Source of the DNA: Candidatus Nomurabacteria bacterium
GTDB taxonomy: Bacteria; Patescibacteriota; Patescibacteriia; HK-STAS-PATE-3
NCBI GenBank assembly: GCA_023898465.1
Contig: CP060223.1
Span: forward strand, 864,001 to 928,000
Direction: 5' to 3'
DNA length: 64,000 bases
Of this stretch, positions 30,056-62,325 are shown one piece after another (the stretch's first letter is position 1; each line of letters opens with the position of its first letter). The position numbers were made by a program, and so were the translations under genes. The notes under the pieces were generated by a model. That model made no database searches, had not been told where the DNA came from, and saw only the letters and a list, made by a program, of their open reading frames with translations.

Positions 30056-30146
30056 TGGCGGTGGGAGAGGGATTTGAACCCCCGATACCCTTTCGGGTAT
30101 ACCGCATTTCGAGTGCGGCCCATTCGACCACTCTGGCATCCCACCG
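30056..30146 (-). tRNA. tRNA-Ser (anticodon CGA), CCA encoded
   Basis: Cloverleaf with acceptor ggtggga/tcccacc, anticodon loop cuCGAaa, long variable arm, T-loop ttcaaat. Confidence 0.8.
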
Positions 30147-30153
30147 TGAATAG

Positions 30154-30429
30154 TTAGCGAATTGTATTTTGGAGTAAAAATTTCAGACGCTCACGTCCCT
30201 TTCCCGTCTTCAAAAATCTTTCCTCAAGTACTGCATCATTTTTGTTTGAGAACACCTCATAGTAAACGAGTGACCAATCTTGCGACCGGGATGTATAGCG
30301 CGATCTGCCGGACTTATGTTCGCTTACCCTCTTTTTTAAATCACTTGTACTGCCGATATACTTCTTTTTTAGATGAATACTATACAATATGTATACATAA
30401 TACATATTTCTCCTTGTATCGATCACCAC
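30154..30429 (-). CDS. GIY-YIG nuclease family protein (91 aa)
   Basis: YVYILYS...KYIGSTSDLKKRVSEH...N. Lies immediately 5' of tRNA-Ser on the same strand. Confidence 0.7.
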   Translation of the reverse strand: MVIDTRRNMYYVYILYSIHLKKKYIGSTSDLKKRVSEHKSGRSRYTSRSQDWSLVYYEVFSNKNDAVLEERFLKTGKGRERLKFLLQNTIR

Positions 30430-30490
30430 CTATCCCGCCCGAGGCGGGTCCGCCTTGGGCGGACGACCACTCTGGCACCTCTCCAAAACG
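30430..30490 (-). repeat. Partial duplicate of the tRNA-Ser 5' end (acceptor + D-arm, ~21 nt) plus two GC-rich hairpins, upstream of the GIY-YIG ORF
   Basis: On the minus strand ggagaggtgccagagtggtcg aligns with the tRNA 5' end ggtgggatgccagagtggtcg. It is followed by hairpins tccgcc-caa-ggcgga and cccgcc-tcg-ggcggg. Confidence 0.5.
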
Positions 30491-55689: not shown

Positions 55690-56025
55690 ATGTCAGAAAC
55701 ACTAGCTCCGCTGCATGACAGCCTTCCTGAAGTGAAGTCAGGTCAGCAGGTCCGAGTCCATCAAAAAATCAGCGAGGGGGACAAGGAACGCAATCAGGTT
55801 TTTGAAGGCGTTGTCTTAAAGCGCAGTGGCGGCAAAGGCCCATCAGCCAGTATTACTGTTCGCAAAATTGGTGCTGGTGGCATTGGTGTAGAACGCATCT
55901 TCCCTCTTCATTCACCTGTCATCACCAAGGTTGAAGTAGTGGGTGAAGCAAAGACACGACGAGCAAATCTCAGCTATCTCCGTAAGCCTCGCGCCAAGCA
56001 GCTGAAGATGAAGTCAGTCAAATAA
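55690..56025 (+). CDS. rplS: 50S ribosomal protein L19
   Basis: [33 protein letters not shown]...[21 protein letters not shown]. The start is set at MSETLAP. Confidence 0.85.
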
Positions 56026-56028
56026 GTT

Positions 56029-56112
56029 CCTGCGCGGGTGGCGGAACCCCGAACCACGCAGGGTTCGGGAGTCCTGCACCTCACAAGGTGCAGGGTGGGA
56101 GTAAACATTATG
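56029..56112 (+). repeat. Partial duplicate of the tRNA-Leu(GAG) 5' end (17 nt) plus two GC-rich hairpins preceding the GIY-YIG ORF
   Basis: ctgcgcgggtggcggaa is identical at 56030 and 56386. It is followed by cccgaacc-acgca-ggttcggg and cctgcacc-tcacaa-ggtgcagg. Confidence 0.55.
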
Positions 56113-56122
56113 TACTCTTACT

Positions 56123-56371
56123 ATGTCATTCGTTTATATCCTGCTACTTAATAATCAAGAGCTCTACGTCGGATTTACTGCCGACCTTAATCGACGACTT
56201 GAAGAGCATCAACTAGGTAGGAGTGGTTACACAAGTAAGTACCTACCAGTAAAACTACTTTTTTATGAAGCCTTTACCAGCGAAGTGGATGCGCGGCGAA
56301 GAGAGAAATATTTAAAAACGAGTAAAGGTAAATCAACGATACGGATGATGCTCCGTACTACACTGCAGTAA
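56123..56371 (+). CDS. GIY-YIG nuclease family protein (82 aa)
   Basis: FVYILL...LYVGFTADLNRRLEEH...Y. Paralog of 30154..30429. Lies immediately 5' of tRNA-Leu. Confidence 0.7.
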   Translation: MSFVYILLLNNQELYVGFTADLNRRLEEHQLGRSGYTSKYLPVKLLFYEAFTSEVDARRREKYLKTSKGKSTIRMMLRTTLQ

Positions 56372-56388
56372 TATATCTGCGCGGGTGG

Positions 56389-56474
56389 CGGAATGGTATA
56401 CGCGCTAGCTTGAGGTGCTAGTGGCCGCAAGGCCTTGGAGGTTCAAGTCCTCTCCCGCGCACCACGTGAAGCGT
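56389..56474 (+). tRNA. tRNA-Leu (anticodon GAG), CCA encoded
   Basis: Acceptor gcgcggg/cccgcgc, loop uuGAGgu, long variable arm. Confidence 0.75.
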
Positions 56475-56575
56475 GGTGCTAAATAGCTGAGCAAAATTAG
56501 ACATACCACCGTAGCAAAAGCTGCGTTGCTTTTAAATTGGATAGACTCTTCACTGCTTAAACTCAAATGGTCTTC

Positions 56576-60262: not shown

Positions 60263-60338
60263 TGGTGGACCCTACCGGGCTCGAACCGGTCACCTCCGCG
60301 TTGCAAACGCGGCGCTCTACCAAATGAGCTAAGGGCCC
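60263..60338 (-). tRNA. tRNA-Ala (anticodon TGC), CCA encoded, G3:U70 present
   Basis: Loop uuUGCaa. Acceptor gggccct/agggtcc with a G3·U70 wobble. Confidence 0.8.
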
Positions 60339-60626
60339 TTAATTCAGACTATTCGAAACAGGTGAAAAAATATCCCGTAGAAGAGATGGAACAAATCCAG
60401 TCAGTGTAAGAAAAACAATGAAAATCATGAGGATACCGAGAAGCTTTAAAAAAATTCTCGTACCACCCTCGGTACCGAGATGCTGCTCAGCCCATTCGAT
60501 CCGACCAAACCAGTTCATGAAAAAATCAGTCTTGATCACAAGTAGCGCACCTATCAGTATAACGATTCCACCAATTAAATATCGCATAACTCTTCTCGTA
60601 TTATTAACGCCCCCCCCTAGCACCAT
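60339..60626 (-). CDS. Small membrane protein (95 aa)
   Basis: Two TM helices. Confidence 0.35.
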   Translation of the reverse strand: MVLGGGVNNTRRVMRYLIGGIVILIGALLVIKTDFFMNWFGRIEWAEQHLGTEGGTRIFLKLLGILMIFIVFLTLTGFVPSLLRDIFSPVSNSLN

Positions 60627-60730
60627 CGAGTACTTGAGCTTGAAAAGCTAAGTACGAGATGAAAAGCGGCACGTTTGCAAAGGGCGCAGTCCGGCTTGGC
60701 CGGGCAAAGCCTGGAGCAAACGATGACGTG

Positions 60731-60807
60731 TGGTGGGCGATCCAGGAATCGAACCTGGGACCTCGTCATTATCAGTGACGCGCTCTAACCAACTGAGCTA
60801 ATCGCCC
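60731..60807 (-). tRNA. tRNA-Ile (anticodon GAT), CCA encoded
   Basis: Loop cuGAUaa. Acceptor gggcgat/atcgccc. Confidence 0.8.
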
Positions 60808-60854
60808 ATGTTTGTTCCCCGTGGAACATGATGTAAAACTACATAACAACGCGG

Positions 60855-60940
60855 TGGTGCCGCCGGTCGGACTTGAACCGACATGAGGTTACCCTCAAGG
60901 GATTTTAAGTCCCTCGTGTCTACCATTCCACCACGGCGGC
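60855..60940 (-). tRNA. tRNA-Leu (anticodon TAA), CCA encoded
   Basis: Loop cuUAAaa. Long variable arm. Confidence 0.75.
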
Positions 60941-61043
60941 AAGCATTCAAAGCGAATACATGCCATATTTCAACACAAGAATGTCATTCATGCAAGACCA
61001 GCAGGAACCACATGCTAACACGAGTATTTCGGAAAAACAAGAC

Positions 61044-61721
61044 TTACTCGGGTTTATTAAACTCAATCTGCGAAGTAGACTCTTTGCTTCTGCGACTTTT
61101 AATAAACTCCCAGAGGGCGGGCAATAATGAAATAGCAATGATAGCAACTACGACAAAACTAAAATTCTCCTGGATAAAAGGAAGCCTGCCAAAAAAATAT
61201 CCTCCGAACAAGAAAATGCTGACCCAGAGGAATGCTCCAAGCACATTATAAGTGAAAAAGTGACGATATCGCATTAAGCCAACACCTGCAACAAAGGGAG
61301 CTATGGTACGAACAATTGGAACAAATCTCGCAATGACAATTGTCTTTGCTCCATACCTTTCATAAAAACGATGGGTACGGTCAAGATGCTCCTTCCTTAG
61401 CCAACGAGAATTTCTCAACTCATATACTCTTCGACCAAGGTGCTTCCCTATCCAATAGTTTAATCCATCGCCTAACACAGCCGCAGTAAACAGCAAGGCA
61501 AAGAGAAGTATAATATTTAGTGACCCTGCATCAGACAGCGCTCCAGCGGCAAAAAGAAGCGAATCCCCTGGCAAGAAGGGCATAATCACAATGCCCGTCT
61601 CAAGGAAGACAATACCAAAAAGAAGCGCATAGACCCAGGTGCCGTATGTGCTTATAGCTATTCCAAGGCTTTCATCTAAGTGGAGAAAGTATTGAGAAAT
61701 AGTGTGTAATAGCTCGTTCAA
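61044..61721 (-). CDS. DedA/SNARE-associated family membrane protein
   Basis: VYALLFGIVFLETGIVIMPFLPGDSLLFAAGAL core motif. Confidence 0.8.
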   Translation of the reverse strand: MNELLHTISQYFLHLDESLGIAISTYGTWVYALLFGIVFLETGIVIMPFLPGDSLLFAAGALSDAGSLNIILLFALLFTAAVLGDGLNYWIGKHLGRRVYELRNSRWLRKEHLDRTHRFYERYGAKTIVIARFVPIVRTIAPFVAGVGLMRYRHFFTYNVLGAFLWVSIFLFGGYFFGRLPFIQENFSFVVVAIIAISLLPALWEFIKSRRSKESTSQIEFNKPE

Positions 61722-61820
61722 CTTGAATTAGATAATTGTTTCAGTATTTAGTCAAAATGTTATTTTATTTTTTTTGGCTAACTTTAGTGAGGCGATGTTC
61801 CTCGAGGAACTTTTTAATTG

Positions 61821-61895
61821 TGGTGGACCAGAGGGGAGTTGAACCCCTGACCCCTGCAATGCGAATGCAGTGCTCTACCACTGAGCTACTGGCCC
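61821..61895 (-). tRNA. tRNA-Ala (anticodon CGC), CCA encoded, G3:U70
   Basis: Loop uuCGCau. Confidence 0.8.
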
Positions 61896-61945
61896 TAGTG
61901 TGTTCCTCGTGGAACAAACGGATGGGAGGCCTAAATTATCTAACG

Positions 61946-62021
61946 TGGTGGACCCTACCGGGCTCGAACCGGTCACCTCTTCCATGCCATGGAAGCGCTC
62001 TACCAAATGAGCTAAGGGCCC
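61946..62021 (-). tRNA. tRNA-Ala (anticodon GGC), CCA encoded
   Basis: Identical to Ala(TGC) outside the anticodon arm. Loop auGGCau. Confidence 0.75.
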
Positions 62022-62073
62022 ATGTGAACTACGGATATTTTAAGCTTCTTTTCTCCGTACCTGCCTCAGCCTT

Positions 62074-62145
62074 TGCCCCCACCATGAATCGAACATGGAT
62101 CCAGGGCTTAGGAGTCCCTTGTTCTATCCTTTGAACTATGGGGGC
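62074..62145 (-). tRNA. tRNA-Arg (anticodon CCT); CCA not encoded
   Basis: Acceptor gccccca/tgggggc. Loop cuCCUaa. There is an A31·G39 mismatch at the base of the anticodon stem. Confidence 0.65.
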
Positions 62146-62325
62146 AGGGGCGGCGGCAGGCAATTTTCTTTTACCCGAGATTTTGTAACTTTTGTAAAAA
62201 GTTATTTTTTTGCTAGCCTTTGCAAAAAATAAGCGTCGTAGAATATTATGTTAAAAATGCATCTAAGTTACGAGCCATTATTACACCAAGTGGCCATTTT
62301 CGCAATGCCTAAAGAGCCAGATCGA

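Follow-up and report, generated by a model that had tools for sequence, protein, structure and literature searches.

Anatomy and conservation of the tRNA-Leu(GAG) locus

We analyzed a 64-kb stretch of the genome of a Candidatus Nomurabacteria bacterium (contig CP060223.1, positions 864,001 to 928,000; hereafter the window, numbered from its first nucleotide) and focused on a small element at positions 56030 to 56479 in which a tRNA gene fragment, two GC hairpins, a predicted GIY-YIG nuclease gene, and an intact tRNA-Leu(GAG) follow one another on the plus strand. The flanking host gene is rplS (55690 to 56025, plus strand), an open reading frame (ORF) for ribosomal protein L19 whose homologues carry PF01245. 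The 17-mer CTGCGCGGGTGGCGGAA is found in two exact copies, at 56030 to 56046 and at 56377 to 56393, and a search of the whole window that allowed up to 2 mismatches returned these 2 matches in total against a chance expectation of 0.01. The upstream copy begins 4 nucleotides (nt) past the rplS stop codon, with its tRNA-derived part 6 nt past it. The downstream copy consists of a 2-nt leader and nt 1 to 15 of tRNA-Leu(GAG), and its exact repetition and alignment with relatives indicate that it restores the intact tRNA gene (56379 to 56464; found by ARAGORN and by Rfam at 55 bits). The insertion point in the resident gene lies in the D loop, at GGCGGAA^TGGTATAC, after loop nt 3 of 10. An original prediction made from the same DNA had described the exact duplication, its reach 2 nt into the leader, and the two GC hairpins between the copies, all of which we recovered; it was also right that one copy lies upstream, but the distance it gave, 360 nt, has to be corrected to 347 nt.

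Hairpin 1 (CCCGAACC ACGCAG GGTTCGGG, 56048 to 56069) and hairpin 2 (CCTGCACC TCACAA GGTGCAGG, 56073 to 56094) were delimited by folding, by comparison with the related locus L081 (loci from other genomes are given L numbers throughout), and by covariation within the family described below. The 100 nt on the 5' side of the GIY-YIG start codon fold beyond what is seen in shuffled sequences (z = -5.4). A weakly conserved 5' untranslated spacer with a predicted third hairpin (56095 to 56122) leads into the putative nuclease gene (56123 to 56371), which encodes a catalytic domain alone in 82 amino acids and is the sole ORF with a family match between the 17-mer copies. Folding also predicts an 8-bp hairpin, GCACCACG TGAAG CGTGGTGC, that overlaps the 3' end of tRNA-Leu at 56459 to 56479, and a terminator-like hairpin followed by a T run at 56510 to 56525, placed by consensus match only, is the likely end of the transcription unit. 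A consensus scan found no promoter-like site between rplS and tRNA-Leu(GAG), that is, inside the element. The missing promoter together with the terminator-like site after the tRNA makes it likely that the element is carried on the rplS transcript, with the hairpins, ORF, and tRNA co-transcribed. Rfam searches, of 55950 to 56520 at E values up to 1 and of the whole window at gathering thresholds, returned nothing but tRNA.

Orthologous loci were reached through the neighboring rplS gene. Downstream of rplS the site is filled in the window, L081, and L082, whereas it is empty in L083 and L084, where tRNA-Leu(GAG) begins 8 to 18 nt after the rplS stop codon with neither ORF nor hairpins. Presence and absence at a conserved site, as known for free-standing homing endonuclease genes, is thus seen here between filled loci and empty loci of distant relatives, whose L19 is about 65% identical. 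The empty sites show that the upstream 17-mer, which stands at the position of the tRNA start in the empty loci, is the displaced 5' end of the resident tRNA-Leu(GAG), split in the D loop. At this break point (56393/56394, marked here by a caret) the three filled alleles read GGAA^TGG, and both empty alleles have one extra T, G[G/T]AAT^TGG; with two empty alleles only, the difference could be a target-site change that protects filled alleles or mere lineage divergence. The hairpin at 56459 to 56479 is present in the filled L081 and L082 and missing in the empty L084, and it is a candidate for either a processing signal or the right border of the cassette.

Nucleotide identity to the window is 96.6% for L082 and 84% for L081. 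The element and rplS have diverged from L081 to a similar degree (84% and 83% identity, respectively), which indicates that the insertion is old and has been inherited vertically in this lineage. Both L081 and L082 carry the duplication in independent assemblies from other sequencing runs, so the assembly artifact that the original prediction had named as its possible refutation is excluded. The protein and the noncoding module are both constrained. The ORF is under purifying selection, with a ratio of nonsynonymous to synonymous substitution rates (dN/dS) of 0.097 against L081 at a dS of about 1.0, and 7 synonymous and 0 nonsynonymous changes against L082. Outside the ORF, identity to L081 is 17/17 for the fragment and 32/33 for the hairpin stems, compared with 7/12 for the hairpin loops, about 14/32 for the spacer before the ATG, and 65% for third codon positions of the ORF, which serve as neutral-like sites. 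The tRNA-Leu(GAG) itself is identical at 86/86 positions in L081 and L082. Alternatively, the identity of the fragment may be kept by gene conversion with the tRNA 347 nt away.

The predicted protein matches PF01541 at 53.3 bits, and its paralogue at tRNA-Ser(CGA) does so at 60.1 bits (cut-off, 22.6). Residues Y5, Y15, G17, R25, H29, and E61, which stand for the GIY Tyr, the YIG Tyr and Gly, the Arg, the His/Tyr, and the metal-binding Glu of the superfamily, are invariant in 24 homologues, and we take them to be the equivalents of the I-TevI catalytic residues. The AlphaFold model (predicted local distance difference test score, 94.2) shows the beta-beta-alpha-beta-alpha order of the GIY-YIG fold (elements E2-8, E14-19, H22-30, E44-51, and H54-64), and its best PDB matches are all GIY-YIG domains. 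Profile searches returned 1zg2 (1.6e-13), 1ywl (3.3e-11), and SLX1 (5e-5) and no I-TevI match, while Foldseek gave template modeling (TM) scores of 0.69 to 0.70 for Slx1 versus 0.46 to 0.51 for I-TevI. The closest solved relatives by sequence and fold are the UPF0213 proteins BH0048 and EF2693, followed by the Slx1 nuclease domain, and the protein accordingly belongs to a UPF0213/SLX1-like branch of the GIY-YIG superfamily from which the I-TevI catalytic domain is clearly more distant. Members of the family are 76 to about 100 amino acids long, and the C-terminal DNA-binding domain of SegB/I-TevI-type enzymes is missing. TIGR01453 matches the first 30 residues only, and weakly (22 bits versus a cut-off of 56). 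Because of its 82-residue length, the missing DNA-binding domain, and this weak match, we did not file the protein as a member of the SegB/I-TevI family.

The start codon of the nuclease gene at 56123 has no well-placed Shine-Dalgarno motif. An out-of-frame ATG lies 8 nt past a Shine-Dalgarno-like GGGAG and opens a 13-codon ORF (56110 to 56151) that overlaps the GIY-YIG start; this arrangement is not kept in L081.

The window holds only two GIY-YIG ORF copies, and the second belongs to a sister locus on the minus strand at tRNA-Ser(CGA). There, a tRNA-Ser 5' fragment recognized by tRNA comparison, GGAGAGGTGCCAGAGTGGTCG (30464 to 30484), ends in the D loop and is followed by two GC hairpins delimited by folding, TCCGCC CAA GGCGGA and CCCGCC TCG GGCGGG (30434 to 30463), by a Pfam-supported ORF of 83 amino acids (30154 to 30405), and by an intact tRNA-Ser(CGA) found by ARAGORN and Rfam (30056 to 30145). 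The two ORFs are 40% identical (E value, 3e-17), which bears out the paralogy claimed for the 82-residue protein in the original prediction. The fragment is unable to pair with the 3' end of the functional tRNA-Ser, whose acceptor stem is GGTGGGA/TCCCACC, and the two appear to be different alleles. L087 and L088, whose methyltransferase next to the orthologous site is only 58% identical, have at that site an identical 20-mer and a related hairpin upstream of another tRNA-Ser(CGA) allele, with no ORF. The same GGAGAGG fragment therefore precedes different intact tRNAs at the window Ser locus and at L087, and GGAGAGG is the commonest tRNA-Ser acceptor strand among the studied loci. This sharing would fit a conserved resident tRNA that was displaced on separate occasions; alternatively, the fragment may be under selection or may travel with the element. 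ORF-less relics are present at this tRNA-Ser(CGA) locus in L087 and L088 (L087/L088:2555-2645), which keep that 20-nt fragment and one hairpin, and in L089 (L089:3037-3180), where 21 nt of the tRNA 3' end are repeated about 95 nt farther on.

Recurrence of the layout and replacement of tRNA alleles

A scan of one genome per species yielded at least 578 relatives, and the best 80 loci, with 86 ORF copies, were studied. Their hosts are mostly Patescibacteria, together with bins labeled Lentisphaerae, Kiritimatiellae, Verrucomicrobiota, Nitrospirae, Auribacterota, and others. A tRNA gene lies on the same strand within about 40 nt downstream of 32/86 ORF copies, versus 0.18 expected, and in most of these tRNA-linked copies the 5' part of the tRNA is repeated 60 to 160 nt upstream of the ATG. 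The exact matches between this upstream fragment and the tRNA measure 12 to 51 nt, with 51 being the probe limit, and those of controls at most 11 nt. Two GC hairpins, adjacent to each other, nearly always come next after the fragment. That the arrangement represents an element family and not a chance event, as had been proposed from its two occurrences in the window, is confirmed by this recurrence of the order fragment, hairpins, ORF, and tRNA in dozens of genomes. The tRNAs concerned are those for Ser, Leu, Gln, Tyr, Asn, Glu, Gly, Arg, Ala, and Lys; the two window copies had suggested a restriction to class II tRNAs, which is rejected by the use of all those other than Ser and Leu. Among about 2.9 million viral contigs we found one relative, with no tRNA nearby; the family is essentially absent from them, and carriage by phages is rejected.

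Across the family, the second hairpin of a pair is approximately the reverse complement of the first, which makes the pair as a whole almost self-complementary. Within the hairpin family of the Leu clade, which includes the window copy, 96% of cells pair and 10/18 pairs show compensatory double changes; the covariation score of 0.418 (0.158 in shuffles) was reached by 0/500 shuffles, and the signal disappears if the register is shifted. In the 260 nt upstream of the ORFs, hairpins whose stems reach 7 bp or more are enriched about 10-fold.

The proteins cluster by context and, within the clade with the order fragment, ORF, and tRNA, by amino acid family. The window Leu copy falls together with copies from Leu(CAA), Leu(TAA), and Leu(TAG) genes, in which the break is not in one and the same loop; this grouping is explained better by homology-driven spread between related tRNAs than by strict site specificity encoded in the protein.

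When the fragment ends were mapped on ARAGORN secondary structures, the breaks (n = 31) fell in the D loop (9), the anticodon loop (8), the T loop (7), and elsewhere (7). In 7-nt loops, 13/15 breaks come after loop nt 4 (TTCG^AAT, CTCG^AAA, CTTA^AAA, and CTCA^AAA). In 17/28 loci, 6 nt or more of tRNA sequence continue immediately past the hairpin pair (mean, 6.3 nt versus 2.7 nt in controls), and the pair therefore sits exactly at the break. Loop nt 3 and 4 appear on both sides of the pair, with their complement between the hairpins (CG/CG/CG, TA/TA/TA, and CA/TG/CA), and this 2-nt repeat is the only regular one at the hairpin borders. A target-site duplication by a fixed staggered cut was considered as the source of the 17-mer and rejected, the repeat length across the family being 7 to about 90 nt. 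At both window loci, Leu and Ser, the break lies in the D loop.

Several loci retain both an interrupted resident tRNA and a different intact one. In L002, an upstream pseudo-5' half and a downstream pseudo-3' half both stop at a hairpin pair in the anticodon loop; put together, they make a valid tRNA-Leu(CAA), and its acceptor stem is not the one found in the intact tRNA between the halves. L054 has, on its left, nt 1 to 7 of a resident tRNA-Arg, a hairpin pair, the ORF, and an intact tRNA-Arg with a terminator, and on its right nt ~7 to 14 of the resident tRNA-Arg, the same hairpin pair, and resident nt 15 to 77. The interrupted copy of L011 shows compensatory changes, located in its variable arm and acceptor stem, relative to the intact tRNA-Ser(CGA), and must therefore once have been a different functional allele. 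Displaced 3' remnants are kept in 8 of about 33 loci, L002 included. Because the split resident tRNA differs from the intact one in several loci, the cassette brought in a replacement tRNA there. A foreign origin of the flanking tRNA, as expected from co-conversion, is seen at L002, L011, L018, and L054 and is likely at the window Ser locus. The fragment and the tRNA 5' end are identical at the Leu locus, so co-conversion would leave no sequence difference there.

L027 has two tandem units before one tRNA, which means that the intact tRNA is open to reinvasion. ORF-less hairpin pairs in pseudo-tRNAs (the L023 array, L024, and L087) can be read as products of ORF loss or of short conversion tracts. 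A pseudo-tRNA upstream of the ORF at L001:2330-2500 has separate hairpin insertions in its D, anticodon, and T loops, and one hairpin of L054 contains a nested insertion; from these two cases, hairpin units seem able to land repeatedly.

A probable homing-type cassette and its alternatives

We consider it probable that 56030 to 56479 is an old insertion of a small selfish homing-type cassette in the D loop of the tRNA-Leu(GAG) gene after rplS. The cassette would consist of the double hairpin, a short leader, the 82-residue GIY-YIG gene, and a fresh tRNA leader with the first 15 nt of the tRNA; since it would thereby supply a new 5' end, the tRNA is kept whole, and the resident 5' end persists upstream in the form of the 17-nt fragment. 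Comparison among loci suggests how it may spread. The putative nuclease would break a naive tRNA gene at a stem-loop apex, choosing its target by structure, and repair of the break would copy the cassette: the broken left end would pair with the displaced fragment of a filled allele, which would act as the left homology arm, and the hairpins, ORF, and tRNA would be copied. Annealing of the right end within the intact tRNA would give the canonical order of fragment, hairpins, ORF, and tRNA, whereas invasion of the remnant beyond the hairpins would instead give the layouts of L002 and L054, and short conversion tracts would leave hairpin-only pseudo-tRNAs. The double hairpin at the break point would destroy the target site in the left arm, and the tRNA would be released from the rplS co-transcript by normal processing. 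The cassette, which is well supported both as an insertion and as a family, is apparently an undescribed family and a variant of the free-standing homing endonuclease gene; a prior description of a tRNA-splitting GIY-YIG cassette was not found in the literature searched, paywalled work being outside its scope.

The closest working analogue is SegB of phages T4 and T6, a GIY-YIG homing endonuclease encoded by a free-standing gene among the clustered tRNA genes of the phage. It recognizes a TΨC stem-loop motif, cleaves tRNA genes internally at RAWTSGAAC, and causes these genes to be amplified in a recombination-dependent manner (PMC2330249, PMC13096335). SegB has a 27-bp recognition site and leaves 2-nt 3' overhangs (PMC2330249). 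Like the cassette gene, segB adjoins tRNA genes, and its spread with neighboring tRNA genes by recombination also makes tRNA-containing repeats. Its site (reverse complement, GTTCSAWTY) is where family-A hairpin pairs interrupt pseudo-tRNAs, GGTTCG^AATCC, and the 2-nt repeats at the cassette junctions would fit a 2-nt staggered cut with 3' overhangs such as that reported for SegB (PMC2330249). The differences are that SegB is a phage protein, whereas the cassette protein is chromosomal, 82 residues long, and closer to UPF0213/Slx1 than to I-TevI-type enzymes, and that the architecture of split tRNA and double hairpin has not been reported for SegB loci. SegB is also several times longer, with a C-terminal DNA-binding region.

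In architecture, the closest analogues are the mobile endonuclease ORFs of fungal mitochondria, in Allomyces atp6 and in Glomus atp6, atp9, cox2, and nad3, which bring a replacement gene end and displace the native one (PMC3630166). There, too, an endonuclease ORF (LAGLIDADG or GIY-YIG) is inserted in an essential gene and comes with a foreign version of the displaced part, the gene stays functional, the native piece is left as a fragment, and foreign and native pieces can differ. Those ORFs encode full-size endonucleases and replace the 3' (C-terminal) end of mitochondrial protein-coding genes, whereas the cassette lies in a bacterial chromosome, targets tRNA genes, replaces the 5' end or the whole tRNA, and combines a minimal nuclease with a conserved double hairpin at the junction. 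The UPF0213 proteins (BH0048 and EF2693; YhbQ-like) and the SLX1 domain share the same catalytic motif residues and are the best sequence and fold matches, but UPF0213 proteins have no assigned function, neither group is known from mobile elements, and no tRNA linkage of either is reported in the literature searched. SLX1 resolves branched DNA in eukaryotes and needs its partner SLX4 and a RING domain.

The mitochondrial double-hairpin elements of Allomyces and the bacterial REPIN/RAYT systems are likewise short GC-rich two-hairpin units of mobile or amplifiable DNA. REPINs consist of two palindromes in inverted orientation and are tied to one dedicated enzyme gene, the RAYT, which encodes an HUH/Y1 transposase and not a GIY-YIG nuclease. 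Neither kind of element is related in sequence to the cassette hairpins, and specific landing in tRNA loop apices is, to our knowledge, a feature of neither. Genomic islands and prophages in tRNA genes resemble the cassette in leaving one tRNA intact and in having a stretch of the tRNA gene repeated at either end of the insert. They extend over kilobases, depend on a tyrosine or serine recombinase, and for the most part enter at the tRNA 3' end by way of a fixed core, in contrast to the cassette, which has no recombinase, measures about 350 nt, lies on the 5' side, and has a variable repeat length. An integrase-mediated tRNA island was rejected on the recombinase count, there being no tyrosine or serine recombinase gene in the element, and a group I intron was rejected given about 100 nt of noncoding sequence, no Rfam family for a ribozyme core, and an insertion in the D loop and not in the anticodon loop.

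Several other explanations of the locus deserve weighing. The near self-complementarity of the hairpin pair, the loop nt 3 and 4 repeated on both of its sides, the hairpins in three loops of the L001 pseudo-tRNA, the nested insertion in L054, and the same-family pairs without an ORF in pseudo-tRNA loops (the L023 tandem array, the L024 pseudo-Ser(TGA), and L087) would all suit a REPIN- or miniature inverted-repeat transposable element (MITE)-like unit in which the double hairpin is what truly moves, landing in stem-loop apices, while the GIY-YIG gene mobilizes it in trans as a RAYT would and the tRNA duplications mark the only insertion context that is survivable. We regard this as unlikely, yet as a serious partial rival that overlaps with a homing cassette: the hairpins are concentrated upstream of the ORFs, no such pair exists elsewhere in the window, and ORF-less copies are explained equally well by ORF loss or short conversion tracts. 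A domesticated host gene, for instance a repair or defense nuclease settled in tRNA operons beside relics of local tandem duplication, is improbable. It would account for strong purifying selection over a long vertical history and for the failure to find recent polymorphism in this lineage, but not for dozens of copies that split different tRNAs precisely in their loops, for foreign tRNA alleles beside displaced resident halves, for the tandem reinsertion in L027, or for the related hairpin sequences common to Patescibacteria and Lentisphaerae.

We give very little credence to an RNA-level or RNA-guided system, comparable to the OMEGA systems with their guide from the element border, in which a transcript of fragment and hairpins would serve as guide plus scaffold, decoy, or regulator and direct the nuclease to tRNA genes or tRNAs. 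We know of no RNA-guided GIY-YIG enzyme. An 82-residue protein is far too small to handle both RNA and target DNA, and the fragment, although it lies on the 5' side of a structured module as a guide would, has no set length (7 to about 90 nt). Conservation of fragment and stems while their surroundings drift, and covariation of the hairpins, would be expected of such an RNA, but the dyad symmetry of the pair suggests a role at the DNA level, Rfam has no match, and no RNA-guided GIY-YIG enzyme is listed in the review PMC13565253. The Ser fragment shared by the window and L087 beside different tRNAs is a further point in favor of a guide, to be set against the ability of gene conversion with the nearby tRNA to maintain fragment identity. 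Phage- or island-style integration of a mini-circle, with the 17-nt repeat as att core, can draw on the direct repeat of a tRNA part at both ends of the insert, a classic att signature, and on the L002 layout, which can be drawn as a Campbell-type integration; the 347-nt unit has no integrase or recombinase, its sole ORF being the GIY-YIG gene, the repeat length is not fixed across the family, and integrases normally use the 3' end of tRNA genes, so we hold this to be highly improbable. The repeat statistics and the same structure in two independent assemblies from other samples refute an assembly artifact or chance repeat, to which we attach practically no probability.

Several observations weigh against a selfish homing-type cassette. 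In this lineage the insertion is old and vertically inherited, as judged from L081, and a purely selfish homing gene should decay after fixation, yet the ORF and hairpins are conserved at a dS of about 1; such long conservation could reflect a host-beneficial or addictive role. Two metagenome scans, one for the predicted empty junction AAGTTCCTGCGCGGGTGGCGGAATGGTA and one for the tRNA-Leu 5' half, did not find an empty allele within the species, but the collection seems to be without this lineage and the null scans are therefore no evidence either way. At the two window loci, no remnant of a tRNA is detectable past the hairpin pair (matches of 3 and 2 nt), and a search downstream in the window for a displaced 3' half, of either tRNA-Leu or tRNA-Ser, did not detect one (z below 1); the incoming piece at the Leu locus may therefore have been either the leader with tRNA nt 1 to 15 or originally a whole tRNA. 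The 82-residue catalytic domain, with no DNA-binding domain, leaves target choice unexplained, the intact tRNA of the filled allele still carries the presumed target, and the origin and exact role of the double hairpin are not accounted for. The case for nuclease activity and transfer is wholly comparative.

We put forward more tentatively, and with somewhat more doubt than belief, a broader reading in which this tRNA gene replacement cassette of about 350 nt would represent a new class of bacterial mobile element. Its UPF0213-type nuclease would read stem-loop geometry and not sequence, cutting at apices in D, anticodon, and T arms so that any tRNA gene is accessible; the self-complementary double hairpin would be a cis-acting border; and tRNA genes would be replaced horizontally across Patescibacteria and other phyla, giving UPF0213 its first biological role. 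If a cassette of this kind is confirmed, tRNA genes would be the habitual target of a minimal selfish element in Candidate Phyla Radiation bacteria and some other phyla, which would explain concretely how tRNA genes can be turned over horizontally and where nearby pseudo-tRNA debris comes from. It would also offer a testable function for the widespread UPF0213-like GIY-YIG proteins of about 80 residues, whose structures have been solved since 2005 and which have no known role, and the loop-apex rule would suggest a nuclease that reads DNA shape over sequence, which is of mechanistic and possibly practical interest. In genome annotation, partial tRNA matches and small GIY-YIG ORFs beside tRNAs would need to be read as one element.

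Related layouts and neighboring features

Two further clades of GIY-YIG ORFs show other layouts. The first is a mirror image, with an intact tRNA, hairpins that start at its CCA end, and then the ORF, and comprises L005, L007, L019, L026, L029, L034, L039, L042, L049-L051, L057, L059, L062, L063, L065, L070, and L077-L080. A short 3' tRNA repeat after the ORF is found in 2/29 copies with this layout (L050 and L072), which looks like nondisruptive insertion at the tRNA 3' end in a related but different mode. In the other clade (L033, L035, L037, L048, L052, L055, L061, L067-L069, L071, L074, and L075) there is no tRNA, and the ORF lies between the arms of an inverted repeat, for example CCAGGTAGTGAAAATTCGA ... 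TCGAATTTCTACTACCTGG, which in several cases is located right at the stop codon of the upstream protein gene.

Repeat arrays were observed at three loci. At L023:2860-3040, a tandem unit of T-arm half, hairpin pair, tRNA 3' end, and 13-nt spacer is repeated at least 3 times after tRNA-Ser(GCT), and upstream of the ORFs in L007 and L019 there are at least 3 direct repeats of one hairpin unit. These arrays look like repeat expansion and are reminiscent of the amplification driven by SegB.

Several loci, L003, L021, L029, L035, L040, L059, L065, L073, and L077, are in bins labeled "uncultured Gammaproteobacteria" or "Pseudomonadales." Given their typical Patescibacteria-like elements and gene content, these labels may be wrong, which bears on any claim of spread between phyla.

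Elsewhere in the window, seven tRNA genes (Ala x3, Ile, Leu-UAA, Arg, and others) lie together at 60263 to 62146 on the minus strand in a cluster that contains no GIY-YIG ORF, fragment, or hairpin pair. The D-loop core of its tRNA-Leu(UAA), GGAATGG, is the same as that of the invaded tRNA-Leu(GAG).

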